DNA of 64,000 bases, taken from the NCBI RefSeq assembly GCF_044704955.1, contig NC_091994.1, positions 94,550,001-94,614,000 on the forward strand. Reading direction: 5' to 3'. Below are positions 1 to 28,149 of the stretch, piece by piece. A model generated the notes under the pieces. The model was given only the letters and a program-made list of their open reading frames with translations. It ran no database searches and was not told where the DNA came from. The translations under genes and the position numbers were made by a program. The stretch comes from Pristiophorus japonicus. Lineage: Eukaryota. How positions within the stretch are numbered: the stretch's first letter is position 1; each line of letters begins with the position of its first letter.

Positions 1-402
1 GCGGAGGTGCAGCGAACGTTTGTGGCGGAAGAGCGGCGAGAGATCGTGGCGGAGGTGCGGCAAATGAGGATACGGGGCCCAGAAGAGTCGAGGGCCCAGG
101 GGCAGCACGGGTCAGCCCACACTACAATATGTCTGTGCACTAGGTCTGTGCAGCAGAGCAGGTCTCCAGTCGTCCTAGTTAATCCTTGCCACTGGATAAA
201 GGCCTAGCTCTGTCAAGCCCGTGTGGTGGCTGATGTGCAACGGTCACCACACGATAGAAAAATCCACAAACAGGCATCTTCCACCCCTTCAATTGGAGTT
301 CAGGGCTGGAATATTAGGTCCTTCATTGAAACATCTGTGAACTCTTGTGGAAGCAAGTCATCCTTGTTCAAGGGACCGCCTATGATGATGATGATGATGA
401 TG
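1..402 (+). mobile_element. Non-autonomous bipartite RTE-derived retroposon (RTE 5'UTR joined to RTE 3' tail), cut by window edge
   Basis: Body matches the 5'UTR of the RTE at 3920-4080 (ccttgccactgg...aagcccgtgtggt...caggcatcttccac). End matches the RTE 3' end gtggaagcaagtc..cctcg..gggac..cta followed by (TGA)n. Confidence 0.8.
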
Positions 403-3400
403 GACACATGTGACTTAGATGCAGTGATATTTTCAACCAACATCTCTGGGATAGTTGATGAGTCCAATGTGAAATGTGTGCTGTTTATCTCAGCCAAGGA
501 GCTTATCTCTGCTGCACTTGAACTTATTTCTGATCCATAAGATGATAGACTATTTGCGAATGTTGGTTTTTCTTCAGTTGCTAATGCCAATTGTGCTGTG
601 ATATGGGACACCTGTGTTGTAGAATGAGTAAAAGGTTTTGTAGAAGGTCGTTCAGTGAGGAAATGGTGGATAAAACTCCTTATTTTGGTATCTCAGAAAT
701 GGAGGAGATCTTTGGTGTAACGTAGGAAGATGTGCCGTCTTGAGACAGATTGATATGTGGAATTTGAAGGAATTTGTGATGAAGTGTCTGTGACTGTGGA
801 CATCTCTAGTGTGGGATATGTCAGAGGAGACGGGTGCTTCATGGCCTCCTGAATTATGGTACTCATTTCATAAGATGTAGATTCTGTTAATGAGGGGCTT
901 TCTACACACGTGGCTGAGATGGATTGATGGTGTCCATAGAGGAGACTGTAGCAGTGGAAGTGTGGCTTTTTCTGCTCGGAATGGAATGAGTGACTGACTC
1001 AGTTGTTCCTTCGGCTGTAAGTGCTAATACTGGTGTGTTATTTGATTCTTGTATGGTGGAATGTGAAGACTGTTGGCTGAGAATGGATGAAACAAAGGAG
1101 AAGGTTGATTTTCGTGTTCTCTGTGAAATGGGAAGAGAGGACTCTGCTTCAAAATGGGCTGAGGTTCTTGGATTTGGAGGAAAGGATAATGATATGGATG
1201 TTTGCAGGGGTTGTGATGACACCTCTGGAATAGTTTCCATTTCTAATCCAGAATAGATTGAGGAAACAGAGTTCATACTCTCCTGATACGCTGGATCTGT
1301 ATGCCTTGGAGTATTTGTTTCATGCAACATTGATTGCCTCACAGAGGATGATTTTATTGGTCTTGCGGACACATATGACTGAATGTACTTTATCTAGAAT
1401 GAATGAACTACTGAGTAAGCTTGATATGTGTGTTTCCTGAGAAATGCTAGTTTCTGGAAGAGATGAGTCATGTGGGAAATTTGTAAGAGTTTTTGATGAT
1501 GTCTCAAAGATAGTTGATGACAGAGACATAGAATACATTGAAGAAGAAGAACCATCCCCTGAGAAAAAGGAACAGTGTGAGCAATTGCACTTGTTTTATA
1601 TAATGCTGATTGTTCCAATTGGAAAGTTGTTATATGTGGCTGATCTGAGCTGCTTACCTCAGGGAAGGAGACTGCAATAGGTGGATGCACTTCTGTGCTA
1701 TGAGGCAGCTGAATGATTGAATAGGGTGATGCTTCTTCAGATGTTAATGGGGATTGTGTATCAGACACTTGTGTTGTGGACTGAGAAATAGATTTTAGAG
1801 ACGGCTGCTCAGTAACAGTAGTGGAAACAGTAGACCAGATGAATTGTTTTTCTGTCTCAGAAGTATGAGATGTTTTTGATGTGTCATAAGATGACATACT
1901 TTCTGGAGTGGGAGATATCTCTGTGTAGGTGGAGAGAAGTTGTGGTGAGGTCCGAGGGATAGTTGACAACTCTAACATGGAATATGTTGAAGAAAAAAAT
2001 AGGGCTTGTGGTCTCCTGAGATAAAGGAACAAGGTAAGCTATTGTTGTACTTGTTTCATATAATGTTGGCTTTGTTCATAGCAATGTTTTCATCAGTGTG
2101 GTCAACACATGTGGTTGAGATGGGTTGGTGATCTCCAGAGATATGGTTGCAGCAGTGGAAATGTGGATTTCTGTTGTGGAAGTTTTTATTTCTTCTAATG
2201 CCAATGTTGATTGAGATGTGGAATTTGATGGTTTCGATATGGAATTTGAAACAGAACTTGTGGAAAGTACTTTAGTGACAGTGGGTGACACAGTGGACAA
2301 GTTTGATACTTGCAATCTCTGTGAAATGGGGGGAAAGATGACTCTGCCATGACATTGAACGAGGCACTGGTTTCTGGAGGAGATGATACATGTATGGATT
2401 TTGGAAGTATGTGTGATGAAGTTTCTGGGATTGTTGACAGCTTGAAGTTGGAATTCATTGGAGAAGAAGTAGAGCTTGTGGTCTCCTGAGAAAGGGAAAC
2501 AACGTTAGCAAGTGTACTTGTTTTATGTGGTGCTGATTGGGCTGAGGATGCACTATCCATTAAAGGTCTTGCAAAGTGTCGCTGATGTGTGCTGTTTCTC
2601 AGTTGACGAGATTGGAATAGGTGAACTTACTTCTGTCCTGTGAGGTAGCTTTCTGATTGAGATGGTTGATGTTTCTACAAATGTTGATGGTGAATTTGTT
2701 GTAGTTTGGGACATCTGTGTGTTGGAATGAGAAACAAATATTGTAGAAGGTTGTTCAGAGACAGGAGGTGAACCTGTAAGCAAGATTGATTGTGTTATCG
2801 CAGGAGTGGGAGAATATGTCATTGATGTAAGATAGGAAGAGATACCCTCTGGGGGTGAAGATACCTGTGTGAAAGTAGAAGGAATTTTTGATGAAGTCTC
2901 TGGGATAGTTAATGATTCTGATCTGGGAAGATTGATAAATCAGAGGTCACAGACCCCTGTGAGACATGAACAGTGTGTACTCTCCTACATGTTCTGTACA
3001 TTGATGATTGCATGACAAAGGAGGAATCTGCTGGTGGAATAGCCACAACTGACTGAGATGGAATGATTGTCTCCATAGAACAATCTGTGGCACTAGATGC
3101 GAATTTTACTGTACTGGGTGAAGAATGAGTCATTGACCTCATTGTTTTATTCTCTGGTATCTGACAAGTTTGAGGATGAATGAGAAACAATGTGTGGTTA
3201 AAGTTCCTTCTTGTGTTCGCTCAGAAATGGGAGCACGGAACAACTCTGGTAAAATAAGAGGAAGATCTGGTCTCTGAATGGGACGATACATGTGGGGAAG
3301 TTGGAAGTGGTTGTAATGTGTTCCCAAGAATAGTTGATGATCCAAATGTGGAATTCATTATAGAAGAATTAGAGCTTGTAGTTTCCTGAGACAGCAGAAT

Positions 3401-3561
3401 TATTATATTCATTTCATATGGTGTTGATTCTGAAGATGACGCATCCATTGGTGTTGTGGACAACTGTGACTGAAATGGAATGCTGGTTTCTATAGAAGAG
3501 ACTGTAGGAATGGAAGCCTGTGTGAGAAGATTGTAGAATCTTCTGGGGACTTTATGTGTGG

Positions 3562-4928
3562 AGGTCGTCTGTCACCACGGGAGGTCCTCGATGACAGCTG
3601 GACCTCCTGTGGTGTCAGATGATCTCTTCCTCAACGATAACTGGGTCCCCCTCTCCCACGTCGGCAACTGGCCTCCCCTCCTCCTTCAGCGAAGGCTGGA
3701 GCTCTCCTTCCCCACTGGTGACCTGGCCTCTTCTCCTCCTCCAACACGTGGTGAGTACCATGTCTGTGAACCCCCTGCCCTCCCACCCTGAACCCCGGTG
3801 GGCCACTGACCCTCCAATGCCTGCCCTCAACCAGGCCTCGGACCACCTACTATCAAGGGTGCTACCCAGCGCCGAGCATACGGCCAACATCTTGCCGTAG
3901 GCAACTAGGCCCATACAGCAGTGCCTGGTCTCCAGTCATCTCGGATCCCCTTGCCACTGAATCAAGACCTTGCTCAGCTAAGCCCGTGTGGTAGCCGGTG
4001 TGCAACGACCACCCCATCTTAAAAGAACTCACGCACAGGCATCTTCCACTCTGTTAACATGAAGTTCGGGACCTGGAACATCAAGACCCTTATGGACAAC
4101 CCCAACAACGACAGGCCGGAACGCCGCACCGCCATAGTTGCCCAGGAACATACATGCTTTGATAGCGACATCGCCGCCCAAAGCGAGACCCGGCGGGCAG
4201 GGGAAGGCCAGCTCAATGAACAAGGTGGAGGTTACACCTTCTTCTGGAAAGGGAAACCAGAGGAAGAATGCCGCCTCCACGGAGTCAGCTTCGCCATCAA
4301 AAACAAGCTGGTTGACCGTCTCAAAGACTCCCCCTGCGGGGTTAACGAACACCTCTTGACTCTTCGACTCACCCTATCCCGGAATCAGTGCGCCACAGTC
4401 ATCAGTGCGTACGCCCCAACACTCGATGCAACTGATGAGGCCAAAGAGGGTTTTTACTCCAACCTCGAAAAATCTTTGTCCTGCGTCCCGGCGGGCAACA
4501 AACTGATCCTCCTCAGTGACTCCAACGCCAGGGTCGGCAAGGACACATGAAGCTCCTTCACGGCAAACGAGCCAAAGGTGGGCAGAGGAAACGTTACAAG
4601 GACAGCCTCAAAGCCTCCCTGATAAAGTACGTCATTCCAACTGACACCTGGGAGTCCCTGGCCAAAGACCACCCGAAGTGGAGAAAGTGCATCCGGGAGG
4701 GCGCTGAGCACTCGAGACGCGTCGCGAGAGCATGCAGAAATCAAGCGCAGCTATTGGAACGAGCATGCGGCAAACCAGTCCCACCTACCCCTTCCCTCAA
4801 CGGCTGCCTGTCCCACCTATGACAGAGTCTGTGGCTCTCATATTGGACTGTTCAGCCACCAAAGAACTCACTTCAGGAGTGGAAGCAAGTCTTCCTCGAT
4901 TCCGAGGGACTGTCTATGATGATGATGA
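3562..4928 (+). mobile_element. Internally deleted RTE-clade LINE (5'UTR + APE endonuclease N-terminus fused to ORF C-terminus; no RT)
   Basis: ORF 4059-4550 MKFGTWNIKTL...SETRRAGEG...ISAYAPT...SDSNARVG is an RTE endonuclease. It jumps at ~4546 to the RTE C-terminus (GGQRKRYKDSLKASL). (GAT)n tail. TSD ttatgtgtgg at 3552-3561 and 4929-4938. Confidence 0.9.
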
Positions 4929-5799
4929 TTATGTGTGGCTGATGGGGGCTGCTTATCTCGTTTGAAGAGAACTCAAAGGATGAACTCAATTCTGTTTTAC
5001 GGGGTGACTGAGTAATTAAGAAGGCAGATGTTTCTTCAGCTGTTAATGCTGATTCTGCTGTAGTATAGGGTGCTTGTGGTAGAATCAGAAAGAGGCATTG
5101 TAGAAGGTTGTTAAGTGATAGTGAATAAAATGAGATATGAAGTTGATTATTTTGTTTGATGAAAGGCAGGAAGAGATACTTCCTGGAAAGGAAGATGCCT
5201 GTGTGGATGTTGAAGGAATTTTTGATGAAGTCTCTTGGATAGCTGCCGACCCTAATGTGGAAGAGATTGAAGATGCAGAGATCAGAGCGGCATGAGATTC
5301 AGAAACATTGTGTGTTGCTGTACTTGTTTTGTGTGATGTTGTTTCTGCCCAATGGTGAGATTTCTGTTGGAGTGGATAAAGGAGCCTCTGATAGATAGTC
5401 CGTCACCATGGCAGAGATTACAACAGAGGAAGTCTGGATTTCTGTACTCTCACATGAATGTGCAACTGAACTGGATGTTGTCTGTTTTGTTGTAAGTATT
5501 GACTATAAGTTAGTGTTTAGCACAGATGAGGGCACAGTGGAAAAAAGGACATTTGAAGCTAATTCTTGCAATTTCTCAGAAGTAGGAAAATAAATATCTG
5601 GTGTAGCATACACTGAGGTATTTTCTGGAGTAGAGATGAGTGTGGAAGTTGCAATTTTGTTAAGCTGAAGTCTCTGGGATAGTTAATGATTTTAATATGG
5701 AGTAAATGACCCAGATCTGATACTGCTCTGAGATGCAGGTACACTGTGAGTTATTGTATCGGTTTCATGTAATTTGGATACAAGGTTTCCATAGGTGTA

Positions 5800-6031
5800 G
5801 GCAGGGGATTTATCCCCGGTGCCAATATTTATCCCTCAATCAACATCATTAAAAAAACAGATTATCTGGTCATTGCTGTATGTGGGAGCTTGCTGTGCGC
5901 AAATTGGCTGCCCCATTTCCCACAAGACAACAGTGACTACACTTCAAAAAGTACTTATTGGCTGTAAAGCGCTTTGAGATGTCAAATGGTCATGAAAGGC
6001 GCTATATAAATGCAAGTCTTTCTTTATTTCT
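5800..6031 (+). mobile_element. 3' part of Deu-domain SINE (SacSINE1-like)
   Basis: ccaatatttatccctcaatcaacatc...gcttgctgtgcgcaaattggctgcc...gtaaagcgctttg...aaggcgctatataaatgcaagtctttcttt; same family as 52392-52785. Confidence 0.8.
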
Positions 6032-7049
6032 TCACAGACAGATCACTTGTCTCAATAGAAGAAACTGACCAGTGGAAGTTTGAATTACAGTATCAGGAGA
6101 TGATGTAGCAATTGTTGTGGTGATTGTTTGATCTGATGGTAGAGTGGTAGACTGTGGAACTGACATTGTGGAAGGTTCTGTACAGGCACTGGATGGAAAA
6201 GTAGATGAGGCTGATTCTTGTATTACCTCAGAAGTGGAAGAAAAATATGTCTTTGATGGAATAGACTGGGTTATTGATTCATCTGAAGTTAATGTTAATT
6301 GTGAGCTCATTATTGAGACGTGAGAGGCGGAATGTGAAACTGGTGATGTTGCAGATTCTGAATTTACAATGGATGAAAAACTGGATGAGCTTGTTTGTTG
6401 TATTATGTCAGATCTCAGTGACGGAGAAACCACTGATAAAATTTGAGGTAAGCTACTTTGTGGAAAGGAAGATATATGCAGGTAAGTTGAAAGGATTTGC
6501 GATGAGCTCTCTGGGACAGTTGGGACTCTAATTAGACTGCTATACTCTGAGGCAATCGAACAAATGAAATAGTCATTGATCCTATTGAGGAGAGAGGAAC
6601 ATTGTGAGTTACAGTACTTTTTATATCTGAAGTTGATTCCATTAAAGATAAGGTTTCCTTTGGTATTGTCTGATGTGAATCAGATGGAATGACTGTCTCC
6701 AGAGGAGAAATTGCGGCTGAAGGTTGGATTTTGTGTATTATCAGATGATTGAGTGTTTGGCGTAGTTGTTTTTTTGGTCTAAATGCAGATTGTGGTAGGT
6801 TATTCGACATTTGTGAGAGAGAATATGAAATCAATCTTACAGCAGGCTCTTCTTTGAGAATGAAAGCAGCAGGGGATGAGGCTACGTTCTCTGAACTCTG
6901 AGAAGATGATAGCTCTGTTGTAGATAGACTGACGTATTTTCCAAAGAGCAAGATGTATGGTTAGATGTTGGAATACTTGTTGCATGAGATTGAGCAATAT
7001 TGAACGTCTCAGTAAAAGACTGTGCTGAACTAAAATTAAGGACTTCTGC

Positions 7050-7560
7050 ATCATTAGATGAATGTTGTACACTTCAGGTGATGGTTCTCTACTGATAGGT
7101 GGCTGTACAATAGTGTTAGGTGTCTGTACTGTACTGATAGGTGACTGTACAGTAGTGTTAGGTACCTGCTCTGCAGTGTTGGATGACTGTACTGTAGTAT
7201 TGGGTGATGGTTCTGTCGTGTTAGGTGACTGTTCATTAATGGTGACTATTCTGTACATTCTGTATTGTTAGCTGACTGTTCTGTACTGTTCGGTGACTGT
7301 TTATACTGGTAGGTGACTGTTTTGTAGTGTTCGTTGAATGTTCTCTATAGTTAGTTGTCTGTCCTGTATTGTAAGTGGAATGTTCTGTACTGTAAGTGGA
7401 ATGTTCTGTACTGTTAGGGGACAATTCTGTAATGTTAGATGACGGTTCTCTATTGTTTGGTGATTGTTTTATGTTGCTAGGTGACAGTTCAGTAATGTTA
7501 GGTGCCAGTTATGTATTTTGTTAGGTGACAGTTCTGTATTGTTAGGTGAGAGTTCAGTAA
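7050..7560 (-). repeat. Degenerate 21-bp tandem repeat encoding TTEQSPN-like heptapeptides (continues at 11843-11925)
   Basis: Unit approx gttaggtgactgttctgtagt on +; minus-strand ORF 6800-7258 reads EQSPNTTEPSPNTTVQSSNTAEQVPNTTVQSP. Confidence 0.75.
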
Positions 7561-10500
7561 TAAGAACATAAGAACATAAGAAATAGGAACAGGAGTAGGC
7601 CATACGGCCCCTCGAGCCTGCTCCGCCATTTAATACGATCATGGCTGATCCGATCATGGACTCAGGTCCACTTCCCTGCCCGCTCTCCATAACTCCTTAT
7701 ACCCTTATCGTTTAAGAAACTGTCTATTTCTGATTTAAATTTATTCAATGTCCCAGCTGCCAAAGCTCTAGTAGGCAGCGAATTCCACAGATTTACAACA
7801 CTCTGAGAGAAGAAATTTCTCCTCATCCAAGTTTTAAATGGGCAGCCCCTTATTCTAAGATTATGGTCTCTAGTTCTAGACTTCCCTATCAGTGGAAACA
7901 TCCTCTCTGCATCCACCTTGTCAAGCCCACTCATAATCTTATACGTTTCGATAAGATCACCTCTCATTCTTCTGAATTCCAATAAGTAGAGGCCCAACCT
8001 ACTCAACCTTTCCTCATGTCAACCCACTCATCTCCGGAATCAACCTAGTGAACCTCTTTGAACTGCCTCCAAAGCAAGTATACCCTTTCGTAAATATGAA
8101 AAACAAAACTGCATGCAGTATTCCAGGTGTGGCCTCACCAATACCCTATATAACTGTAGCAAGACTTCCCTGTTTTTATACTCCATCCCTTTTGCAATAA
8201 ATGCCAAGATTCCATTGGCCTTCCGGATCACTTGATGTACCTGCATACTATCCTTCTGTGTTTCATGCACAAGTACCCCCAGGTCCCCCTGTACTGCAGC
8301 ACTTTGCAATCTTTCTCCATTTAAATAATAACTTGCTCTTTGATTTTTCCTGCCAAAGTGCATGACCTCACACTTTCCAACATTATACTCCATCTGCCAA
8401 ATTTTTGCCCACTCACTTAGCCTGTCTATGTCCTTTTGCAGATTTTTTGTGTTCTCCTCACACATCGCTTTTCCTCCCATCTTGGTATCGTCGGCAAACT
8501 TGGCTACGTTACACTCAGTCCCTTTTTCCAAGTCGTTAATACAGATTGTAAATAGTTGGGGTCCCAGCACTGATCCCTGCAGCACCCCACTAGTTACTGA
8601 TTGCCAACCCGAGAATGACCATTTATCCCTACACTCTGTTTTCTGTTCATTAGCCAATCCTCTATCCATACTAATATATTACCCCCAACCCCGTGAAATT
8701 TTATTTTGTGCAGTAACCTTTTATGTGGCACCCTATCGAATGCCTTCTGGAAGTCCAAATACATCACATCCACTGGTTCCCTTTATCCACCCTGATCGTT
8801 ACATCCACAAAGAATTCTAGCAAATTTGTCAAACATGACTTCCCCTTCATAAATCCATGCTGACTCTGCCTGACCGAATTCTGCTTTTCCAAATGTCATG
8901 CTACTGCTTCTTTAATAATGGACTCCAACATTTTCCCAACCCCTGATGCTAGGCTAACTGGTCTACAGTTTGCTGCTTTTTGTCTGCCTCCTTTTTTAAA
9001 TAGGAGCGTTACATTTGCAGTTTTCCAATGTGCTGGGACCTCCCCAGAATCCAGGGAATTTTGGTAAATTACAACCAATGCATCCACAATCCCTGCCGCT
9101 ACTTCTATTAAGACCCTAGGATGCAAGCCATCAGGTCCAGGGGATTTATCTGCCTTTAGTCCCATTATCTTACTGAGTACCACCTCCTTAGTGATTGTGA
9201 TTGTGTTAAGTTCCTCCCCCCTATAGCCCTTTGATTATCCACGGTTGGAATATTGTTAGTGTTCTCTACCATAAAGACTGATACAAAATATTTGTTCAGA
9301 GTTTCTGCCATCTCCATGTTCCCCATTACTAATTCCCCAGTCTCGTCCTCTAAGGGACCAACATTTACTTTAACCACTCTTTTCCTTTTTATATACCTAT
9401 AGAAACTCTTGCTATCTGTTTTTTATTTCGTGCTTATATACTTTCATAGTCTATCTTCCCTTTCTTAATCATTTTTTTAATCATTCTTTACTGGCTTTTA
9501 AAAGCTTCCCAATCTTCTGTCCTCCCACTAGTTTTGGCCACTTTGTATGCCCTTGTTTTTAACTAGATGCCGTCCTCTATTTCTTTATTTAGCCACGGAT
9601 GACTATCTTTTCTCTTACACCCTTTCCTCCCCACTGGAATATATTTTTCTTGAAAGTTGTGAAATATCTCCTTAAATGTATATAAGAACATAAGAAATAG
9701 GAGCAGAAGTAGGCCACATGGCCCCTCGAGCCTGCTCCGCCATTTAATACGATCATGGCTGATCCGATCATGAACTCAGCTCCACTTCCCTGCCAGCTCT
9801 CCATAACCCTTTATTCCCTTATCATATAAGAAACTGTCTATTTCTGATTTAAATTTATTCAATGTCCCAGCTTCCACAGCTCTCTGAGGCAGCAAATTCC
9901 ACAGATGCACAACCATCTGAGAGAAGAAATTTTTCCTCATCTCAGTTTTAAATGAGTGGCCCCTTATTCTAAGATTATGCCCTCTAGTTTTAGTCTCCCC
10001 TATCAGTGGAAACATCCTCTCTGCATCCATCTTTTCAAGCTGCCTCATAATCTTATACATTATCAGTGAAAACATCCTCTCTGCATCCATCTTTTCAAGC
10101 TGCCTCATAATCTTATACATTTCGATAAGATCACCTCTCATTCTTCTGAACTCCAATGAGTAGAAGCCCAACCAACTCAAAGTTTCCTCATAAGTCAACC
10201 CCCCCATCTCTGGAATCAACCTTGTGAACCTTCTCTGAACTGCCTCCAAAGCAAGTATATCCTCTCGTAAATATGGAAATCAAAACTGCACGCAGTATTC
10301 CAGGTGTGGCCTCACCATTACCCTGTACAATTGTAGCAAGACTTCCCTGCTTTTATACTCCATCCCCTTTGCAATAAAGGCCAAGATTCCATTGGCCTTC
10401 CGGATCACTTGCTGTACCTGCATACTAACCTTTTGTGTTTCATGCACAAGTACCCCCAGGTCCCGCTGTACTGCAGCACTTTGCAGTCTTTCTCCATTTA

Positions 10501-11842
10501 AATAATAACTTGCTCTTTGATTTTTCCTGCCAAAGTGCATGACCTCACACTTTCCAACATTATACTCCATCTGCCAAATTTTTGCCCACTCACTTAGCCT
10601 GTCTATGTCCTTTTGCAGATTTTTTGTGTTCTCCTCACACATTGCTTTTCCTCCCATCTTTGTATCGTCGGCAAACTTGGCTACGTTACACTCAGTCCCT
10701 TTTTCCAAGTCGTTAATATAGATTGTAAATAGTTGGGGTCCCAGCACTGATCCCTGCGGCACCCCACTAGTTACTGATTGCCAACCCGAGAATGACCATT
10801 TATCCCTACACTCTGTTTTCTGTTCGTTAGCCAATCCTCTATCCATGCTAATCTTTTACCCCCAACCCCGTGAAATTTTATTTTGTGCAGTAACCTGTTA
10901 TGTGGCACCCTATCGAATGCCTTCTGGAAGTCCAAATACACCACATCCACTGGTTCCCCGTTATCCATCCTGATCGTTACATCCACAAAGAATTCTAGCA
11001 AATTTGTCAAACATGACTTCCCCTTCATAAATCCATGCTAACTCTGCCTGACCAAATGTTGCTTTTCCAAATGTCCTGCTACTGCTTCTTTAATAATGGA
11101 CTCCAACATTTTCCCAACCACAGATGTTATGCTAACTGGTCTATAGATTTTTGTCTGCCTCCTTTTTTAAATAGGAGTGTTACATTTGCAGCTTTCCAAT
11201 CTGCTGGTACCTCCCCAGAATCTAGGGAATTTTGGTAAATTACAACCAATGCATCCAAAATCCCTGCCACTACTTCTCTTAAGATCCTAGGATGCAAGGT
11301 CCAGGGGATTTATCCGCCTTTAGTCCCATTATCTTACTGAGTAACACCTCCTTAGTGATTGTGATTGTGTTAAGAACCTCCCCCCCCATAGCCCTTTGAC
11401 TATCCACTTTGGAAAATTATTAATGTCCCCTACTGTAAAGACTGATACAAAATATTTGTTCACTACTGTTCATCAACTGCCCTAGACTTTAATCTATTTT
11501 CCCAATCCACTTTAGCCAACTCCGCTCTCATACCTTCATAGTTTCCTTTATTTAAGCTCAGTTCGCTGGTTAGAGATCCAACTTTCTCACCCTCCATCTG
11601 AATTTGAAAATCAATCATGGTATGATCACTCTTTCCAAGGGGATCCTTTACTAGGAGATTGTTTATTAATCCTGTCTCAGTACACAGGACCAGATCTAAG
11701 ATAGTCTGCCCCCTGGTTGGTTCCGTTACTTACTGCTCAAGGAACCCGTCGCTTATGCACTCTATGAACTCTTCCTCAAGACTTCCCTGACCAACTTGAT
11801 TTGTCCAGTCAATATGGAGGTTAAAATCTTCCATGATTATTG
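7561..11842 (-). mobile_element. CR1 LINE (ORF2 remnant), split by a nested CR1; pieces 7561-9682 and 11463-11842
   Basis: RT motifs GVLQGSVLGP, KFADDTK, RPHLEYC; EN fragment IIMEDFNLHIDW; (taagaaca)n tail at 7561. Sequence at 9680 continues collinearly at 11463. Confidence 0.9.
9683..11462 (-). mobile_element. 5'-truncated CR1 LINE nested in a near-identical CR1
   Basis: Own 3' tail at 9683; RT ORFs 9776-11028; near-identical to 7561-9300; contains a 60-bp tandem duplication at 10001-10120. Confidence 0.9.
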
Positions 11843-12272
11843 CTGTTTGGTGACAGTTCAGTAATGTTAGGTGCCAGTTCTCTATTGTTAGGTGACTGTT
11901 GTGTCCTGTAAGTTGAGTTAATGTCAACTTTGGTGGAATGGTTGCCACATCTGTGAGAAATTTGAGAGTGTACTTGTAGAAAGTTTTGATCTGATAATGG
12001 GATGGAACAGTGAATGAGTTGGATTGTCCTATTGTCTAAAATTCCGAGGAAGGGAGTGCCTCTGCCATGCCATTTGTTGAGGGACTGACTTCTGGAGGGG
12101 TTGATAAGAGGGTTTGTAATGAATTCTGTGCAAGAGATGATGGGTCGAATGTGGTATATGTGGAAGAACCGGAGCTCGTGGTCATCTGAGAAACGGGCAC
12201 AGTGTGACTTACTGAAATAGTTTCATACAATAAAGAGGATCTCTCAGCTATTGTAGTTTCAGTCTCTCAGTG

Positions 12273-12370
12273 GAAACATAGAAACACAGAAACATAGAAA
12301 ATAGGTGCAGGAGTAGGCCATTCGGCCCTTCGAGCCTGCACCACCATTCAATGAGTTCATGGCTGAACAT
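12273..12370 (-). mobile_element. Short CR1 3'-end fragment
   Basis: (gaaacata)n tail plus aggagtaggccattcggcccttcgagcctgc 3'UTR. Confidence 0.85.
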
Positions 12371-15300
12371 GGCTGAAGACTGGAGCAGATGAAATTATTT
12401 CTGCCCTATGAGAAAATAGAGAAGTGAGGAGGTTGACGTTTATTTTAAGTTTAATGCTGATTGTATAGTTAATATTTGTGTATTTGTGAGGTGGACAGTG
12501 AAACTGAGTTTGGAGAAGGTTCTCCACCGGCAGTGAAGGAATGTTTTGGTACAAAACTGGGAAATGAAGACTTATCGAGTGTAAAATAAGATGTGCTGCT
12601 GGTTTTGAAGGTTGGAGATATATGTGTAGATGTTGAAAGAGTTTCTAAAGAAGTCTCAGGGGTTGACGATTCGTATACTGAATATACTGAGAAAAAGCAA
12701 TTCTCAGGGATTCTTGAGATAAAGAAACTGTGTAAGTGGGTGCTCTAGCTTTGCACGTTAAATGGTTTGAAGAGGTATTTTCCATGTTGCTCACATTTGA
12801 TTGATATGTGGTCTCAATAGAAGAGGCTGCAGGAATAGAACTTTGTATTTCTGTGCTACAAGAAGATTGAGAGATTGACTTTGTAACTGTTTTTTCTGCT
12901 ACTGATTGTCATGTGGGGTTCATTGCATTCGAGGAAGGTTGTACAGTTAAGATTGCAGAATGTTCTCGGTTGACAATGGGCACTCGAGATTTTCCTGACA
13001 TTTCAGAACTTGGGGAAAAGGATGTCCCTGGTGTAACATAGGCACAGATGCTGGTTTCGGGAATGGAAAGCCGATGTGTGTTAGTGGAAGAGCTTTGTGA
13101 AGGAGTCTCAGGAATGGTTGATGACTTGTCTAATACAGAATATGCCGAAGGGGCAGTTAGGTTTGGGTATTCACTGGAGACTGGAGCACTGTGAGTAGCT
13201 GTGTGTTTTTCATATGATGAAAATGTGGTTGAATGAGAGATTTCCATTGATGTAGTTGCTTTATGGGTCTGGAATGGGATGGTTGTCCCACTAGAAGAGA
13301 TGCTCAGAGCAGAACTCTGGACTTCTGTGTCAAGAAAGGCTGGAGTCATTGACAATGCTTCTTCTGATGTTAATTCTGAATGCGCTATGGTGTTTGATTC
13401 TTTTGAAGTGGGTTGTAAAAGTGATACTGTCGAAGGTGCTTTGGTGGCAGAGTATGAAAGGGATTGTTCTACTGACTCGGAGCTGAAATAGGAAGCTGTA
13501 CCTGATGTGACACCGGATGGAGTCATTGTTTTTGGAGTAGAAGATACTTGTACGGAAGTGAAAAGAGTTTGTGTGGAAGTGTCAGAGACAATTGGTGACT
13601 GATGTGAAATACATTGAAGAGATTGAGCTCTGGGATTGATGAGGTACCGGCATAAGATGAGTGGTTCCGCTTGTTTGATTAAGTGGTGGTTGTATAAAAT
13701 TAAAGCTTTCCATAGATGGATTTTTCATATGTGGCTCTGGTGGACTGGTTCTCTCAACAGAAGAGACTGCAATAGTGGGACTAGAGATATCCTTGCTATG
13801 CCAAGACTGAGTAATTGACAGCATTATTGTTTCCTCTGATGTGAGTGCTGAGTCTGATGCAATGGAATTTGAAAATGACACCGTTGAGATTTTTTTGTTT
13901 AATATGGGTAAAATAGCAAAGATGGAAGATTGCCTTTCTGACTGAATTGGGAGAAGAAGGAGCCTTTGGTGTAAAGGGTGTGACGCACTGCTTTGGGCTG
14001 TGGAAGGTAGTTGTGTGGCAGTTGAAAGTGCAGTTGTATTAGGGGCAATTGTTGTTTCTGAAGTAGAATATCTGAGGAAAGAGGGTGAGCTCTTTGACTG
14101 GTAAGATACAGGAACACTGTGCCTTGTTTCCTATGATATTGATTAATTCAAAGAAGAGTGTTTCACTGGCACGTGTGTCTTGGGTGGGCTACTTTTGCCA
14201 GTCGGCGATACTGTAAAAGTTGAAGTTTCTTCAGAAATAGAAGATGTAACGTGAGATGAGCTACTTGATTCTGGAATAGAAGATACAAAAGTGGAGGTTG
14301 AAAGTGTTTGAGGACGTATTGGGGAAAGTTGTTGACTTATCTGTGGAAAATATCAAAGATGAAGTTGATAATTGGGACTCCTGAGATACAGGAATAATGT
14401 GAGGAATTAGGGTTTCCCCCTCTGATATCAGTTGAGACTTAGCAGAGTTCGGCATTGACATTTTTGTTATGTGTGATGGGCTTTTTCTCTCCGTAGAAGA
14501 GTATGCAATACCAAGACTTAAGAATTCTGAGGTGTGAGGAACGTGAGTGATTGGCAAATAATTTTTTTCTTCTGATTTTAATTTTGAGTGCGGTGTGGTA
14601 TTTGTCACTTCTGAGTTGGATTGTGAATTTGATGTAGAATTTCCTTTACTGACTCTTGGTGAAACAGAGGGGAATGTTAATTGTTATGTTAACTTTGATT
14701 TGGAAGAAGGAGTTGTCTCTGATGTATTGTAGGAAGAGGCACTGCTCCATGGATTGGAAGATTTAAGTGTGGAATTCGAAGGGATTTGTGAAGAGGTATC
14801 AGGCAAAGTTGTTGCATCAAATGGGGAATACCCGAAGGAAGCCTGAGAGCTCATGGATTCCTGAGATACAGGAAGGCTTTGAGTGAGCTTGCTTTTTTCA
14901 CAAGATGGTGAGTGGGTAAATAAGGTTTCGATGGGTGTGCCAAAGTCCATCTTTCTTTCAGTAGAAGAGACTACAGTGGTGGAATTTGGGAATTCTGTGC
15001 TGTTGGAAGACTGAATCAGTGCAAGTGTGGTTTGATCTTTTGATGCCATTACTGAGTGTGATGAGATGGACTGTGAACTAATACTGTAGGAGACTCTTTG
15101 CTGTCAGTAGGTGGCACAAAAGAGCTGGTCAACTGTGTTTGCTCAGAAGGGAGAGATGATTTTTTTGATGTTCTGGTCTCAGAAATGGAAGATGTGTGCT
15201 TGGAAGTTGAAAAGGCTTGAGAGGAAGTATTGGGAATATTTGATGATTGATGCTGGAAACACTGGACTCTTGAGCTATAGGAACACTGTGAGTGATAATT

Positions 15301-16829
15301 TTTGTTTCAAATGGTGGTGTTGTGGTTAAAAAGGAACTTTCCTTTGGAGAAATGTCACATCTGATTGAGGTGGGCTGTTTGTCTCGGTAATAGAGACTGT
15401 AACATCAGAAATAAGGATCTCCCTGGGGTGTGAATGTTGAGGTGTTGAGGAGGTAATTGTTTTTTGAGTGGTTAATGGTGAAATTATTGTGTTATTGAGC
15501 TTAATTGATGCGTTTTTGATGTGTACCCCCATGGAATGCTGTTTACTGACAAACATGGGGGAGGTGAAATGTGTGAGGGAACTTTGGAAAATCTACTATT
15601 TTCTGTTTTTTCTAAAACTGAAAGCATTTGTGAGATTGTCTTCGAGAGATTTGGTGACTTGGTTTTCAAATACATTGTAGAGGAGATAGGACTCAAAGAG
15701 CTGTGAGAAGCAGAGGCACTTTAATCAATTGCACACATCAGATAAGATGCAAGACCACTTAGCGAGGATATTTTTGTTGGTGTGTTTGAGCGTGACTGAG
15801 TTGTGGTGAATGGGTGTACAGACCTGAGGACTGTGATTGATGACGTTAGGGTCCCAGGACCACGAGAAGACCGAGACATTGATGCAGTCCTTGATTCTGG
15901 GTTGCTAATGGATTTTTGTGAGGCTTTTAGAGAAGAAAGCAGAGAGGCTGTAGACAGCATAGTAATTTTGGTGGACTCATTATTTGAAGTCACAGTACCA
16001 GATGACTTTGATGGAACCGAAGATACAGAGGAGGCTGACTGGTCTAATGAAGTAATGTGAGGTCAAGATGCTGTCATGCCACCAATTTGTGTATACCTTT
16101 TCCTTATACTGATGTACAAATTGGAAAGATGATTGAAGATGTCTTCATCAAAGGGATGAGAGATAAGTGAGTTGTTGCAAAAGTTTGCAATCCTTGTGAT
16201 GTAGATGTGAGTGAAGCACTTGTCTTCAGTGAAGTTGCTGAAGATGCATGATGTGTTAGATTGTCTCCTGCGGAATAGAATAACCTAATGCTGGTTATTG
16301 TCAGGGATGTGTGTCAATCTGTACATTTTTGTTTCTCAAACTAATTGTGCAGAATATGTCAAGATGTCTACAATGAGCTAAAATATGTTTCTTTTAACGT
16401 GATTTTCACCTGTATTCTGCTGTTTTTTAATGAATTAAGATTGCTATTTGATTCAAGTCATATATATAAAAAGAAAACCCAAGATCTTTGCATGTTAATT
16501 AAATAAGAATAATGATGCGACAAGTGCAGTAACTGGTGGATACAAGATGTGTCTGACTGATAATTAAGTCAGTCAGTCATCCAAATCTTCAAAATCTTTG
16601 TTCAAATAACCCAAATGCCAAGAAATAGTTTTAGAGGACATATTTCCCTGATTTGCATAACTTTTCCATATATCCCACCCATATGTGTGCAAGACATTAG
16701 CTCCAGCACAGGGGAATGAAGGGTGGGAGGGGCAGGGATATGGTGCAGCATATCCCTGAGCACTTTTCAGCCCCCACTGTAGATCTGCCAAAAAAATCAA
16801 TGGGAGCGGGGTGATGTCTAGCCTGATTG

Positions 16830-17060: not shown

Positions 17061-17424
17061 CCTCCTCATGAGTGCATTTCCCAGCCAAACTATTTGGGAA
17101 GCTCTCCATCTTATTCCCCTTTCTTTATGGAGATAGATTGTGTCTGGATGGGCAGAGGTGATGGATCAGTTGGGTGGACCACCCCAATCCAGATCCATCG
17201 GATTGATTGACAAGGACTCTTCACAGGGCACTATCGATGTTGCGTGTAACTCCAGTGTGACTCCATGCATTTGGAAAGTTTCACTTCAGACGTTAGAGAT
17301 ACTGCAAAAGCTTGAAGCTTACCCGATGTTGAGATGGATGTTCTTGATGCTTCTGTCAGGTTTCCTGTGACAACTGATAGAAAAATGGATCATAAACAGT
17401 CACATCCAAACATTTAAAGTCACA

Positions 17425-17560
17425 GAGAACATAAGAATATAAGAAATAGGAGCAGGAGTAGGCCATACGGCTCCTCGAGCCTGCTCCACCATTTAATACG
17501 ATCATGGCTGATCCGATCATGGACTCAGCTCCACTTCCCTGCCCACTCCCCATAACCCCT
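17425..17560 (-). mobile_element. CR1 3'-end fragment
   Basis: gaacataagaatataagaaataggagcaggagtaggcc... same 3'UTR as 7561. Confidence 0.85.
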
Positions 17561-17686
17561 GGTGACTTATGCTATTCTTTTGGAATGTATTTTTGGTATG
17601 TGAATGACACTGGCAAGGCTGCAATTATTGCCCATCCCAAATGCTCTGAGATGATGGTGACTGTTTTTACAACTGCTAGGACATTT

Positions 17687-17938
17687 GGGGGGGAAATTGC
17701 ATAGTGCCCCATTTGGGGGGCGGTAATAGCCGTGAGGCAGGATTTCCTGCGACCCAAATTCAGATTACCGCCCTCAAAATAATGCGCTCCACTTGCTCTG
17801 TGGGGCGGAAGCAGGGTGGAAGGAATCCGAGAGGGGTGTGCAACGCTACGTGCTGGAACGCATAGTGCTGCTGCGTAGAAAGGGGCGGGTCAAAGTTCCG
17901 ATTCTGCGGGTCTCTGTTACTGCTTAAAGATGGAGGCT
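17687..17938. mobile_element. One arm of a GC-rich Harbinger-type non-autonomous element
   Basis: CpG-rich island starting GGGGGGGAAATTG, resembling the termini of 25724, 40284 and 46240; no second end found. Confidence 0.4.
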
Positions 17939-18568
17939 TTAGTTTTCTAATCGTAACCCATTAATACTTCGGTTCTGTCTGCATGGAAGAGGACACAATT
18001 AACGTCCCAGAAATGCTCGGGAACCAAGAGTTTAGTGAGCAAGAGGAATTAAAGGAAATGATTATTAGTAAGAAAATAGTGCTGGAGAAACTAATGGGAC
18101 TGAAGGCAGATAAAACCCCAGGGCCTGATGATCTGCACCCAGAGTACTAAAAGAGGTAGCCATGGAAATAGTAGATGCATTGGTTGTCATCTTCCAAAAT
18201 TCTATAGATTATGGAACAGTTCCTGCAGATTGGAGGGTGGCAAATGTAACCCCACTATTTAAAAAAGGAGGGAGAAAGAAAACAGGGAACTACAGACCGG
18301 TTAGCTCAACATCAGTAGTAGGGAAAATGCTAGAGTATATTATAAAGGATGTGATAATGGCACAATTAGATAATATCAACAGGATTAAACGAAGTCAACA
18401 TGGATTTATGAAAGGAAAATCATGTTTGACAAACCTACTGGAGTTTTTTGAGGATGTAACTGATAGAATAGATAAGGGAGAACCAGTAGATGTAGTGTAT
18501 TTGGATTTTCAGAAAGCCTTTGATAAAGTCCCACATAAGAGGTTAGTGTGTAAAATTAAAGCACATCG

Positions 18569-21500
18569 TGTTGTGTAGCTGTAAAGCATGCCCTCCCATG
18601 TTCTGCCACCAGGGAACGCATCCCCTGACTGTATATAAGTTGGCCCCGAAGGCCTGTTCCTCATTAAGGAGTGTCTAAATAAAGACTGAGGTCACTGTGT
18701 GCAGTCTCATCTGTGTTAGGAACACAATAACTGGCGACGAATATACGAATCCAACGCAGAGATGCAGCAAATTGTGGGCATCCTGGAGAAGTTCTCGGAG
18801 GGTGAGGACTGGGATGCCTATGTCGAACGGCTAGACCAGTGCTTTGTAGCCAATGAGCTGGACGGAGAAGGAAGCACTGCAAAAAGGAGAGCGGTCCTCC
18901 TCATGGTCTGCGGGGCGCTGACCTACAGTCTCATGAAGAATCTTCTGGCTCCGGTGAAACCCACAGATAAGTCATATGAGGAGCTGTGTACACTGGTTCG
19001 GGAGCATCTTAACCTGATGGCGAGGTATCGGTTCTCCACGTGCCAGCGATCTGAAAGTCAGGAAGTGGCGAGCTACGTCGCCGAGCTAAGGCGACTTGCA
19101 GGACAATGTGAGTTTGATGGCTACCTGGAGCAAATGCTCAGAGACTTTTTTGTACTGGGCATTGGCCACGAGACCATCCTATGAAAACTTTTGACTGTAG
19201 AGACACCGATCCTCAGTAAGGCCATTGCGACAGCACAGGTGTTTGTGTCCACCAGTGATAACACCAAACAAATCTCTCAGCACACAAGTGCTAGCAATGT
19301 TCATAAATTAACTGGAACTGTGTTTGCGAGCAGAAATGTACAGTGCAGAAACCATGAGTCTGCAACTGCCAGCAGGCTTCAGGTGTACCAGATGACTCAG
19401 AGTCCGCTACAAAGGATGAATGCAAGGCAATTCACACCTTTTTGGCATCGTGGAGGCTTCCATTCAGCCTATTCATGCCGCTTCAAAGGGTATGTTTGCA
19501 AGAGCTGTGGAACAATGGGGCACCTCCAACGAGCTTGCAGACAAGCTCTGTTTAAAAAAGGGGGCAGACAAAAGGCAGGTAACTATAGGCCGGTTAGTTT
19601 AACATCTGTAGTGGGGAAAATGCTTGAAGCTATCATTAAGGAAGAAATAGCGCGACATCTAGATAGGAATAGTGCAATCAAGCAGACGCAACATGGATTC
19701 ATGAAGGGGAAATCATGTTTAACTAATTTACTGGAATTCTTTGAGGATATAACGAGCATGGTGGATAGAGGTGTACCGATGGATGTGGTGTATTTAGATT
19801 TCCAAAAGGCATTCGATAAGGTGCCACACAAAAGGTTACTGCAGAAGATAAAGGTACGCGGTGTCAGAGGAAATGTATTAGCATGGATAGAGAATTGGCT
19901 GGCTAACAGAAAGCAGAGAGTCGGGATAAATGGGTCCTTTTCAGGTTGGAAATCGATGGTTAGTGGTGTGCCACAGGGTTCGGTGCTGGGACCACAACTG
20001 TTTACAATATACATAGATGACCTGGAAGAGGGGACAGAGTGTAGTGTTACAAAATTTGCAGATGACTCAAAGATTAGTGGGAAAGCGGGTTGTGTAGAGG
20101 ACACAGAGAGGCTGCAAAGAGATTTAGATAGGTTAAGCGAATGCTAAGGTTTGGCAGATGGAATATAATGTTGGAAAATGTGAGGTCATCCACCTTGGAA
20201 AAAAAAACAGTAAAAGGGAATATTATTTGAATGGGGAGAAATTACAACTTGCTGCGGTGCAGAGGGACCTGGGGGTCCTTGTGCATGAATCCCAAAAAGT
20301 TAGTTTGCAGGTGTAGCAGGTAATCAAGAAGGCGAATGGAATGTTGGCCTTCATTGCAAGAGGGATGGAGTACAAAAGCAGGGAGGTCCTGCTGCAACTG
20401 TACAGGATATTGGTGAGGCCGCACCTGGAGTACTGCGTGCAGTTTTGGTCACCTTACTTAAGGAAGGATATACTAGCTTTGGAGGGGGTACAGAGATGAT
20501 TCACTAGGCTGATTCCAGAGATGAGGGGGTTACCTTATGATGATAGCTTGAGTAGACTGGGTCTTTGCTTGTTGGAGTTCAGAAGAATGAGGGGTGATCT
20601 TATAGAAACATTTAAAATAATGAAAGGGATAGACAAGATAGAGGCAGAGAGGTTGTTTCCACTGGTCGGGGAGACTAGAACTAGGAGGCACAGCCTCAAA
20701 ATACGGGGGAGCCAATTGAGAAGGAATTTCTTCTCCAAGAGGGTTGTGAATCTGTGGAATTCTCTGCCCAGGGAAGCAGTTGAGGTTAGCTCATTGAATG
20801 TATTCAAATCGTAGATAGATAGATTTTTAACCAATAAGGGAATTAAGGGTTATGGGGAGCGGGCGGGTAAGTGGCGCTGAGTCCACGACCAGATCAGCCA
20901 TGATCTTATTGAATGGCGGAGCAGGCTCGAGGGGCTAGATGGCCTACACTTGGTCCTAATTCTTATGTAAGCTCTGCAAAACCTGCTAACCACCACGTGG
21001 CAGAGGAAGATCGGTCCATGGTGGATCAAAGCAATTTCGAGCCTCAGAGAGAGGAGGCAGATGCTGAAGTACACGGGGTGCACACATTTTTGATGAAATG
21101 TCCACCTATAATGCTAAATGTAAAATTGAATGGTTTACCCATAGCCATGGAACAGGACACTGGCACTAGCCAATCCATTATGAGTAAAAAGATGTTTGAG
21201 AGACTGTGGTGCAGCAAGGCACTCAGACCAGCCCTGAGCCCCATCCACACGAAAGTGAGAACATACACCAAAGAGCTCATCACTGTCCTGGGCAGCGCCA
21301 TGGTCAAGGTCACCTACAAGGGCACGATGCACGAACTGCCACTCTGGATTGTCCCGGGCGAAGGCCCCATACTGCTTGGAAGGAGCTGGCTGGGCAAATC
21401 CACTGGAAGTGGGATGACATCCGAGCACTATCACATGTCGATGAGGCCTCCTGTACCCAGGTTCTTAACAAATTTCCTTCCCTTTTTGAGCCAGGCATTG

Positions 21501-24500: not shown

Positions 24501-24522
24501 TCATCGTTGTAGGAACACAATA
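18569..24522 (+). mobile_element. Full-length Gypsy LTR retrotransposon (Mag-like), gag-pol disrupted
   Basis: LTRs 18569-18729 and 24322-24522 (TGTTGTGT...ACACAATA). PBS TGGCGACGA at 18732; PPT ggtggggagtga; 5-bp TSD CATCG/CATAG. Gag (DWDAYVERL), protease (QDTG), RT (FQDDILV), RNaseH (CDASSYG), integrase (SDNGPCF). Confidence 0.95.
19551..20968 (+). mobile_element. 5'-truncated CR1 inserted into Gypsy gag
   Basis: CR1 RT motifs and 3' tail; TSD aagctctg at 19543-19550 and 20969-20976. Confidence 0.92.
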
Positions 24523-25723
24523 CATAGGATTAGGGGTAATGTATTGGCATGGATTGAAAATTGGTTAACTGACAGGAAACAGAGAGTAGGAATAAACGGG
24601 TCTTTTTCGGGGTGGTGGGCAGTGACTAGTGGCTTACCACAGGGATCAGTGCTTGGGCCCCAGATATCCACAATGTATAAATGATTTGGATGAGGGAAAC
24701 AAATGTAATATTTCCAAGTTTGCTGACGACACAAAACTAGGTGGGATTGTGAGTTGTGAGGAGGATGCAAAGATGCTGCAAGGTGATTTAGATAGGTTGA
24801 GTGAGTGGGCAAACACATGGCAGATGCAGTATAACGTGGATAAATGTGAAGTTATCCACTTTGGTAGGAAAAACATCAGGACAAAGTATTATTTAAATGG
24901 TGATAGCTTGGGAAATGTCGATGTACAGAGGGACCTGGGTGCCCTTGTACACCAGTCATTGGAAGCAAACATGCAGGTGCAGCAAGCAATTAGGAAGGCA
25001 AATGGTATGTTGGCCTTCATTGCAAGAGGATGTGAGTACAGGAGCAAGGATGTCTTACTACAGTTATACGGGGCCTTGGTGAGACCACACCTAGAGTATT
25101 GTGTACAGTTTTGGTCTCCTTACCTAAGAAAGGATATACTTGCCATAGAGGGAGTGCAGCGAAGGTTCACCAGACTGATTCCTGGGATGGTAGGACTGTC
25201 ATATGAGGAGAAATTGGGTCGACTAGGCCTGTATTCACTAGAGCTTAGAAGAATGAGAGGGGATCTCATTGAAACGTATAAAATTCTGATGGGGTTGGAT
25301 AGACTGGATGCGGGGAGGATGTTTCCCCTGGCTGGGAAGTCTAGAACAAGGGGTCACAGTCTCAGGATACGGGGTAAGAAATTTAGGACACAGATGAGGA
25401 GAAATTTTTTCACTCAGAGGGTGGTGAACCTGTGGAATTCTCTACCACAGAAGGCTGTGGAGGCCAAGTCACTGAATATATTTAAGAGGGAGATAGATAG
25501 GTTTCTAGACACAAAAGACATCAAGGGGTATGGGGAAAAAGCAGGAATATGGTGTTGAGATAGAGGATCAGCCATGATCATATTGAATGGTGGTGCAGGC
25601 TCGAGGGGCTGAATGGCCTACTACTGCTCCTATTTTCTATGTTTCGAATGAGATACCAGGCCTGAGTCTCAACATTCATGTTCATTCTAGGGGACTGGCT
25701 GGTGGCAGTGACTCAGACATTGT

Positions 25724-26319
25724 GGGCTGGACTTTTGGCTTTGCGGTTTACGGGGCAAAAATGAAGGCGGGGCGGGAATGTACTGCCCGATTAACGTTTG
25801 CGCTGTGTGGAGTAATTCTGGTCATCTGGGCCTGCGGGGTCGCAGTGCAAAGAGAGGCATTGTATGACATTCGCGGCACAAAAATGGGAACCTCGCCAAC
25901 TAAAGTGCGGGGCTGGGAGCGCTCCGAGAGAGGCCTTGGGAGGGGAAAGAAATCACAAAAACATTGCCCACACCCTTACAACTCAAATCGCTGCAAAAAA
26001 ATAAAAGAATAAAAACTGGAACGTACCTTTTTTGCAGTTTATCCACCTCATCGCCTCCGGCAGGGCTGGACTGCTGTGTTTTCCCCGGCGGTTATCGCGG
26101 GGCGTGTTTCGGGGCGTACAGGTCGGGTGCGAGTTGAAACTTCTGCCGGTGTCACAACGAGAGCTGTTGCACACCCGGCGCAGCGCCCCCTGGCGGTGCT
26201 GCTAAGCGCCGCCACAAAACCTGACTGGAGGATCGCGCCCAGACGCAAACGTCCTCACTGCTCCATTTTTCACCGTGGAGCATCAAAAACCGGAGCACAA
26301 ACTACCGAAAACCCAGCTT
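25724..26319. mobile_element. Harbinger-type MITE
   Basis: Imperfect TIRs GGGCTGGACTTTTGG ... CCGAAAACCCAGCT; CpG-rich, non-coding. Confidence 0.55.
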
Positions 26320-26424
26320 ATTCATCTGGAACCTGCCGATCAATCCAGCCCAGACTCATTGGATGAAAGCCTTGCATTTCTGCAACATACATGCCAACCT
26401 AGCCAAACCTGACCATACCTGACC

Positions 26425-27399: not shown

Positions 27400-27460
27400 A
27401 TACCCTGCATGAAATGAGTTGGGCTGTCTCAGCCTAGTTCCTTGAGGGCATGGACTTATA
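27400..27460 (+). mobile_element. LF-SINE-like core fragment
   Basis: cctgcatgaaatgagttgggctgtctcagcctagttccttgagggca resembles the remembered LF-SINE core (tgtgaaatgagttggtggtctcagtccagttcctagtggaca). Confidence 0.45.
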
Positions 27461-27548
27461 AATTCTGCATAGACTGGCATTAAATGATCAATTTTCACTC
27501 AAAGAGGTCACAGAATGGTGGAAATGTGGGAAGATGTCATACCGATGT

Positions 27549-28145: not shown

Positions 28146-28149
28146 GTAG

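Follow-up and report, generated by a model that had tools for sequence, protein, structure and literature searches.

Human MUC3A and MUC3B each encode their proline-, threonine- and serine-rich (PTS) region in a single exon, of 15,873 and 39,267 bp respectively, with imperfect repeats and an array of 17-amino-acid (aa) units (PMC9578598). The longest human MUC12 allele encodes 23,080 aa (PMC13345508), and an older figure for the largest internal exon is that of MUC16, over 21,000 nucleotides (nt) (PMC3467050). The MUC3/12/17 cluster was suggested to have arisen first in amphibians (PMC9578598), mucins of this type were given as missing in chicken and fish (PMC1552070), and the available part of PMC4948705 does not mention MUC3. 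In a described example of a splice-site shift with intronization, 53 residues were removed (PMC3538075). Here we analyzed a 64,000-nt stretch of DNA from Pristiophorus japonicus (the window; G000:C18:94550001-94614000), whose minus strand carries the remains of a large mucin-like coding region that we call the dead stalk.

The dead stalk is probably the decayed 5' part of one giant PTS exon, in a MUC3/MUC12/MUC17-type gene that is likely alive and likely removes it as an intron. Like human MUC3A, MUC3B, MUC12 and MUC17, the gene model has a signal exon, one giant PTS exon, a SEA domain, a transmembrane (TM) helix and a tail (PMC9578598, PMC13345508). As in MUC3A and MUC3B, the PTS exon combines imperfect repeats with a 17-aa array; its size is comparable to that of the MUC3B exon and of the longest MUC12 allele, and, as in MUC3A, its Ser+Thr content is 52%. 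In contrast to the human cluster, the part with imperfect repeats is dead here and likely intronic, there are 11 coding exons instead of 12, and a single gene lies by ODAD1-like and MRPS16-like genes, not by ACHE, TRIM56 or SERPINE1.

As in the described intronization (PMC3538075), exonic sequence would have become intron through use of another splice site, with the frame kept. However, approximately 4,400 codons were likely dropped here, given the boundary proposed below, compared with 53 residues there. The locus also recalls chicken Muc13 (PMC1552070), a SEA-type membrane mucin whose stalk length might change by splicing. Chicken Muc13, however, lies beside HEG and has its PTS region distributed among many small exons, whereas here a single huge exon appears to have been shortened once.

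We examined the window plus 200 kb to its left and 190 kb to its right (454 kb) of the 5.9-Gb genome. Positions outside the window are given relative to it (genome position minus 94,550,000) unless a genome coordinate is shown. The coordinates of all features are collected in Table 1.

A dead stalk on the minus strand

We found a coding signal that starts at a still intact phase-1 acceptor (AG at 16269-16268, first exonic base 16267). The minus strand contained 30-40% Ser+Thr in a single frame at a time, hopping between frames (33-39% in the individual pieces). The codon-model score of the first 3.9 kb was +31.6/kb, compared with -57.7 +/- 3.8 for 20 mononucleotide shuffles, -23.9/kb for the reverse strand, and -47 to -60/kb for three introns of the same gene. 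After excision of transposable elements (TEs), the part within the window (16267-408) was 9,826 nt long, or ~3,275 codons. By frame tracking (Viterbi, codon model), this part had approximately 17 stops and 27 frameshifts. TEs had inserted at five sites. The preliminary description of the window had reported a Ser/Thr-biased coding signal from a phase-1 acceptor, a size of ~10 kb and more than 3,000 codons, and stops, frameshifts and at least four TE insertions. Our measurements agree with all of these.

The end of the feature had been placed at the retroposon at the window edge (403), and this had to be revised. The dead stalk continued to -13159, where it joined an intact 57-kb frame. The part beyond the window edge (G000:C18:94549480-94536841, minus strand) contained 3,386 TE-free nt and four more insertion sites, among them that of a two-long-terminal-repeat (LTR) Gypsy element with a 5-bp duplication, the LTRs of which differed at 15 of 214 nt. 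In total, the dead stalk contained 13,212 TE-free nt, nine insertion sites, ~23 stops and ~36 frameshifts. A rough simulation fit put the decay at ~3-4% substitutions.

The long and short interspersed elements (LINEs and SINEs) in the dead stalk were named without a repeat library, and 'RTE' and 'Deu-SINE' are family names that we take to apply to two of the kinds of insertion. The two nested CR1 copies were 92.9% identical to each other. The endonuclease open reading frame (ORF) of the RTE-like element had no Pfam match.

The dead stalk was a degenerate tandem array of approximately 26 copies of a ~175-aa repeat (unit ~510-540 nt). A single repeat seed gave 26 matches, and an iterated profile covered 92% of the dead stalk, partly by construction. 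The register of this old repeat was kept across the points of TE excision, up to -13104; a weak last match ended at -13157. A 51-nt periodicity was looked for in the dead stalk and was absent. We found no small open exons carved out of it, and its sole strong donor (1657) gave no symmetric phase 1-1 exon. Searches of the genome itself found no paralog of the dead stalk.

It is extremely unlikely that the exon is intact and that its lesions arose in assembly. A search for sequencing runs, DNA or RNA, found none of P. japonicus. However, the insertions had target-site duplications and aged LTRs, and the adjoining 57.6 kb, a harder repeat to assemble, was free of frameshifts. The decay is thus best regarded as biological, as was first proposed.

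An intact array follows the dead stalk

Directly past the decay was an open frame of 19,217 codons on the minus strand (-13024 to -70674, no N). There was no intron-like spacer at the transition. The frame was 51-52% Ser+Thr (57% Pro+Thr+Ser) and consisted of an array of 16- and 17-aa units. Its higher-order repeats, spaced at 1191, 3924 and 2904 nt, point to duplication of blocks, and another copy with 100% identity existed for some tiles of the array.

We found that stops were absent from the recent variation of this array. Private repeat variants (context K=9) comprised 40 synonymous and 128 missense changes and not one nonsense change; the expected number of nonsense changes was 12.5-17.8. 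With a stricter context (K=12), there were 42 synonymous, 123 missense and 0 nonsense changes, with 11.1-18.2 nonsense changes expected. The probability of finding no nonsense variant was 1e-5 to 1e-8. In addition, all 784 distinct values of repeat spacing (784/784) were multiples of 3. Missense changes were neutral (omega 0.98-1.08). The variants were young: there were 168 of them in 41,323 sites, and 38 tiles had a median identity of 97.4% to their nearest copy. They are younger than the onset of decay, yet purged of stops; therefore selection on the frame outlasted the start of decay. The live frame is under selection against stops, and the gene is likely alive.

Candidate 5' exons and a proposed route past the dead stalk

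We found one candidate for a first exon, with a Met, a hydrophobic signal peptide and a phase-1 donor. It was the only match to a signal peptide followed by a phase-1 donor in unmasked DNA at window-relative 17,400-254,000; an earlier scan inside the window had given TE-derived or weak matches only. Its position and phase would link this candidate to the gene. Between it and the live frame we found a single symmetric phase 1-1 Ser/Thr-rich exon, putative exon 2.

A phase-1 AG at -13160 is the proposed acceptor of the live giant exon. It follows a pyrimidine run and a 29-nt AG-free zone, and with a crude scoring matrix it scored 3.9, rank 2 of the 3,483 AGs in the frame. The last frameshift was ~70 nt before it. 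We infer the junction of exon 2 to -13160 because of the decay boundary and the phase, not because of site strength. The joined model (exon 1, exon 2, the 57,486-nt exon and eight 3' exons) encodes 19,549 aa with no stop. Reads from a relative (four runs of one study, each in small share and presumably RNA, with exons 7-10% different from those of P. japonicus) covered only array-like repeats (6100-6563) in L003:6100-7835 and nothing at or upstream of the proposed acceptor, which is no evidence either way.

The gene might also be alive with the array entered in another way: through another acceptor, through small exons other than those found, or from a separate promoter with its own first exon, in which case the exons 1 and 2 called here are perhaps unused. 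RNA support was found neither for these exons nor for their junction, a second phase-1 AG at -13313 scored 3.0, and exon 1 is 56 kb from exon 2 across TE-rich DNA, 47% of which was masked before the scan. Nevertheless, the sole signal-peptide exon and the sole symmetric Ser/Thr exon that we found were both open and phase-compatible, and the start of the open frame had no in-frame Met with a signal peptide. Moreover, given the lesion density of 4.5 per kb, unused sequence would be expected to show damage if it extended much more than 0.7 kb beyond the last lesion. We consider such another entry unlikely.

Dead stalk and live frame as a probable single exon

The profile of the old repeat also matched the live frame. 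At the unique 3' end, a sequence outside its training set, it scored 37 bits; the maximum in 200 triplet shuffles was 10.3. At the 5' end of the live frame it scored 15.0, compared with 11.4 in shuffles. Because this remnant of the old repeat sits in frame at the live 3' end, the dead stalk and the live frame were likely one exon.

The dead stalk could instead have been a separate optional exon, or part of a long isoform, upstream of an acceptor at -13160 that was always used; it would then have been lost as a unit with no shift. A perfect donor hexamer (L003 near 6980), ~140 nt ahead of the AG proposed above, fits this possibility, as do the different repeat unit and composition of the dead stalk and the array. 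But the old repeat crosses this donor-like site to -13104, with the weak match to -13157. Nothing like an intronic spacer separates the two parts, and the last 23 codons ahead of the AG are in frame and Ser/Thr-rich. The old-repeat remnant within the live exon also speaks against two separate exons, and we regard this alternative as quite unlikely. An alternative acceptor that already existed within a single exon is compatible with the preferred explanation, a decayed 5' part of one giant exon.

Several observations weigh against that explanation. The old acceptor outscored the proposed one (6.3 compared with 3.9), and 47 of the 759 AGs in the dead stalk scored at least 3.9, so the crude score fails to explain a skip to -13160. 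The missing RNA cover at exon 1 and at the junction of exon 2 with the giant exon counts here as well. Protein searches, which were weak owing to length limits and low complexity, gave 0 matches for an ortholog of the N-terminus of the live frame and, in 1.84 billion protein representatives, 0 matches for an intact ortholog of the dead stalk. The likeness of the dead stalk to the 17-aa array at the DNA level was slight (9 short matches, compared with 0 in each of 10 shuffles). The ancestral coding state of the dead stalk is argued from internal evidence. Of the signs by which an intronization is recognized, we saw the former coding state and the decay, but not RNA across the junction or, in protein searches, an intact outgroup.

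3' exons and family assignment

We found eight small exons 3' of the live frame, all open and phase-compatible, with GT-AG introns. Three of them share a SEA domain; the set also encodes another EGF-like region, a TM helix and a tail. Looking for SEA and EGF exons in the flanking DNA had been suggested at the outset, and SEA, EGF, TM and tail exons were all present. In two of the four runs from the relative, among the matches listed, contigs joined the end of the EGF-like region to a SEA exon 200 nt apart. One contig also had the TM exon 163 nt further. Both spacings fit the intervening exons of the model. These joins show splicing of the 3' exons in a relative, not in P. japonicus.

The closest protein was scyTo_0020580 of Scyliorhinus torazame (P0001; hypothetical, partial), a likely ortholog. 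It has the same order of EGF, SEA, EGF, TM and tail and a 17/34-aa periodic PTS region. P0001 is N-terminally partial, hence silent on the old stalk. One SEA exon was 76% identical to P0001, and P0001 matched PF01390 (SEA) with an E value of 6e-8, over the cut-off; the single SEA exon of P. japonicus reached only E 0.11. SEA domains are cleaved at a G-S-I/V-V motif, and GSIV was present in the SEA exon. EGF-like Cys-rich regions on both sides of SEA are the MUC3/12/17 arrangement. By Cys patterns, the exons have EGF-like regions on both sides of SEA, and they include the TM helix. There was no Pfam EGF match in the exons; a weak EGF-like match was to complement C7 (E 0.009). The top Atlas matches for the C-terminus of P0001 were mucin-12 (0.97) and mucin-3A (0.92), and among longer proteins only lamprey mucin-4 matched (E 3e-7). 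A single-sequence fold of P0001 had a mean predicted local distance difference test score of 37 and was not used. Tetrapod sequences were absent from the search results. The SEA exon was single-copy in the genome, with no paralog in the own-genome search. The tail agreed with P0001 to the last conserved residues, followed by TE-like sequence that ends with no clear class I PDZ motif, a C-terminal feature of MUC3/12/17-type mucins. The last coding exon (L009:1-64, L010:9470-10000) seems to enter this TE-like stretch; its end therefore departs from that of P0001, and a PDZ-binding end may have been lost.

By its domains, the gene appears to be a MUC3/MUC12/MUC17-type membrane mucin. The preliminary description was right to propose a single giant mucin-like PTS exon of a mucin gene. 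Its candidates are marked by multiple SEA domains (MUC16), by pentraxin, GAIN and 7TM (ADGRG4) or by Link domains (lecticans). They were ruled out, since one SEA and one TM were found downstream, followed by a stop; SEA, EGF and TM point to the MUC3/12/17 type. MUC13 was rejected as well: the PTS region is in one exon, and the neighbours differ from HEG1 (71 of 585 unmasked ORFs scanned). MUC3-cluster synteny was not found, as none of at least 112 serpin matches and none of at least 56 carboxylesterase matches lay on C18 (TRIM56 was not searched). Homology of the 17-aa unit to the human MUC3 unit was also rejected: they share the period only, and 579 of 5,000 shuffles scored as well.

The small exons totalled 1,164 nt and had 0 lesions, compared with 5.2 expected at the rate of the dead stalk (P about 0.006). 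This bears on whether the whole gene is a pseudogene, with the array kept open by repeat homogenisation or because a stop-free unit was amplified recently. In favour of this, the acceptor that scores best downstream of exon 2 does run into a stop 53 codons on, the array shows neutral missense changes, and the TE-like stretch lies right behind the last conserved residues of the tail. However, PTS sequence is expected to show neutral missense; the absence of nonsense variants and of any frame-breaking spacing is hard to reconcile with a dead gene, and the small exons and their splice sites are all intact in a single genomic copy. We therefore consider a pseudogene very unlikely. The preliminary description had offered loss of the whole mucin gene as one possibility, which does not fit the intact 19,217-codon frame, the open signal, EGF, SEA and TM exons, and the 3' splicing in the relative.

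Proposed history and product

We propose the following history. The 16/17-aa tandem array would have expanded inside the last old repeats until it could give a long stalk alone. Splicing from the 42-nt exon 2 would have abandoned the acceptor at 16267 for one in phase 1 where the open frame begins, most likely -13160. This downstream acceptor may have been new, or an old alternative that splicing could use before the shift. The bypassed 13.2 kb would have drifted neutrally and taken up TEs at nine sites, giving an intron of ~30.5 kb. Escape sites may have been ready-made, as Ser/Thr codons followed by Val, Glu or Ala codons give phase-1 AGs behind pyrimidine runs. A whole stalk could be dropped by one splice-site move because Ser/Thr-rich codons supply such in-frame acceptors.

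The predicted product is a type I protein forming a bristle of the epithelial glycocalyx. A glycosylated mucin stalk extends 0.25 nm per residue. Because the exon would have lost its 5' part only, a stalk of ~19,000 residues is predicted to remain in the product, and this stalk would be near 5 micrometres long. The alternative first suggested to gene loss, survival by skipping of the stalk exon, came close; the stalk-less protein expected from it does not fit the model. O-glycosylation and SEA cleavage are predicted from what is known of the family (PMC9578598).

On balance, we lean towards the view that, in a live vertebrate gene, one acceptor shift removed ~4,400 codons at the 5' end of a giant exon and that a 57-kb array, newly expanded, took the place of the old degenerate stalk. 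A whole stalk would thus have turned over through intronization, in what may be the largest conversion of exon to intron so far described. The MUC3-type gene would predate tetrapods, and the exon would be among the longest intact coding exons outside human MUC12 alleles. It would be a datable case of mucin stalk turnover, in which an old stalk is dropped by one splice-site move, beyond the gain and loss of repeats. It also warns that heavily decayed 'pseudo-exons' can be parts of live genes. The 57.5-kb coding exon is a test case for giant-exon definition: splicing has to pass over an upstream acceptor that looks stronger, as well as dozens of cryptic ones. The exon is large but no size record, because human MUC12 alleles reach 23,080 aa. 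The locus also suggests that a MUC3/12/17-like gene whose PTS region is one giant exon was present in cartilaginous fish, before the suggested amphibian origin, though without the synteny of the cluster. We found no report that describes the gene or the intronization of a PTS exon in any mucin, in a literature of mostly open papers, supplements (which could list shark mucins) aside.

Features and neighbours of the locus

Table 1. Positions of the dead stalk, its insertions and the exons of the gene model (window positions unless noted)
Feature	Position	Strand	Remarks
Candidate exon 1 (Met, hydrophobic signal peptide, phase-1 donor)	94623248-94623338 (L023:9248-9338; 73338-73248)	-	
Predicted intron 1, window part	17365..64000	-	TE-rich
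Putative exon 2	17323..17364	-	42 nt, symmetric phase 1-1, Ser/Thr-rich; alternative acceptor 17373 gives 51 nt
Old phase-1 giant-exon acceptor region	16268..16300	-	crude score 6.3; stop after 53 codons
Dead stalk piece 1	12386..16267	-	3,882 nt; 8 stops, 10 frameshifts
CR1 3' tail insertion	~12270..12385	-	edges approximate
Dead stalk piece 2	11866..12267	-	ends in 21-bp tandem unit, resuming after the CR1s
Two nested CR1-type LINE copies in 21-bp tandem array	7562..11865	-	RVT_1 E 2e-12 and 1e-10
Dead stalk piece 3	6036..7561	-	includes 21/63-bp tandem array 7084-7561
SINE-like repeat	5801..6035	.	28 similar stretches in the 454 kb examined
Dead stalk piece 4	4939..5800	-	frame tracking, old-repeat profile
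RTE-like LINE, antisense to gene	3562..4928	+	10-bp target-site duplication, 4938-4929 and 3561-3552
Dead stalk piece 5	408..3561	-	3,154 nt; 3 stops, 9 frameshifts
RTE-like element at window edge	1..401	+	519 nt more beyond the edge; 6-bp target-site duplication
Live giant exon (proposed start)	G000:C18:94536840-94479355 (L003-L009)	-	57,486 nt; ends in EGF and phase-1 donor
Eight small SEA, EGF, TM and tail exons	94478829 to about 94469950 (-71171 to about -80050)	-	GT-AG, phase-compatible, open

An ODAD1/CCDC114-like gene on the minus strand (L010-L012; PF21773 in four exons) begins a few kb past the 3' end of the mucin gene. The MRPS16-like exon, also on the minus strand, is the first of the pair L031:6197-6778 and L039:6596-7183 (PF00886, E 3.5e-24). 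The second exon of this minus-strand pair had no Pfam match; it reads like part of a sphingosine-1-phosphate phosphatase.

Predicted intron 1 contained a decayed endogenous retrovirus-like element (30000-35500, plus strand; RNase H E 6e-19, integrase E 1e-21) with an env-like fragment, broken over several frames. A second retrovirus-like element lay upstream of exon 1 on the plus strand (L025:7400-10000 and L026:1-6200; 91400-100200), with open frames of 663, 347, 816 and 635 aa. Elsewhere in the window were Gypsy-type elements with long pol frames at 18720-24474 (plus strand, with a CR1 inside) and 47199-51208 (minus strand), and fragments of a PIF/Harbinger-like transposase at 61786-62849 (plus strand; DDE_Tnp_4, E 5e-36). 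Four minisatellites were found in predicted intron 1: 37652-37996 (30/93-bp units), 39644-40260 (69 bp), 59267-59672 (43 bp) and 60585-61142 (14 bp). On another contig, G000:C5:24100000-25300000 held a large tandem cluster of serpin exons, many of them near-identical.

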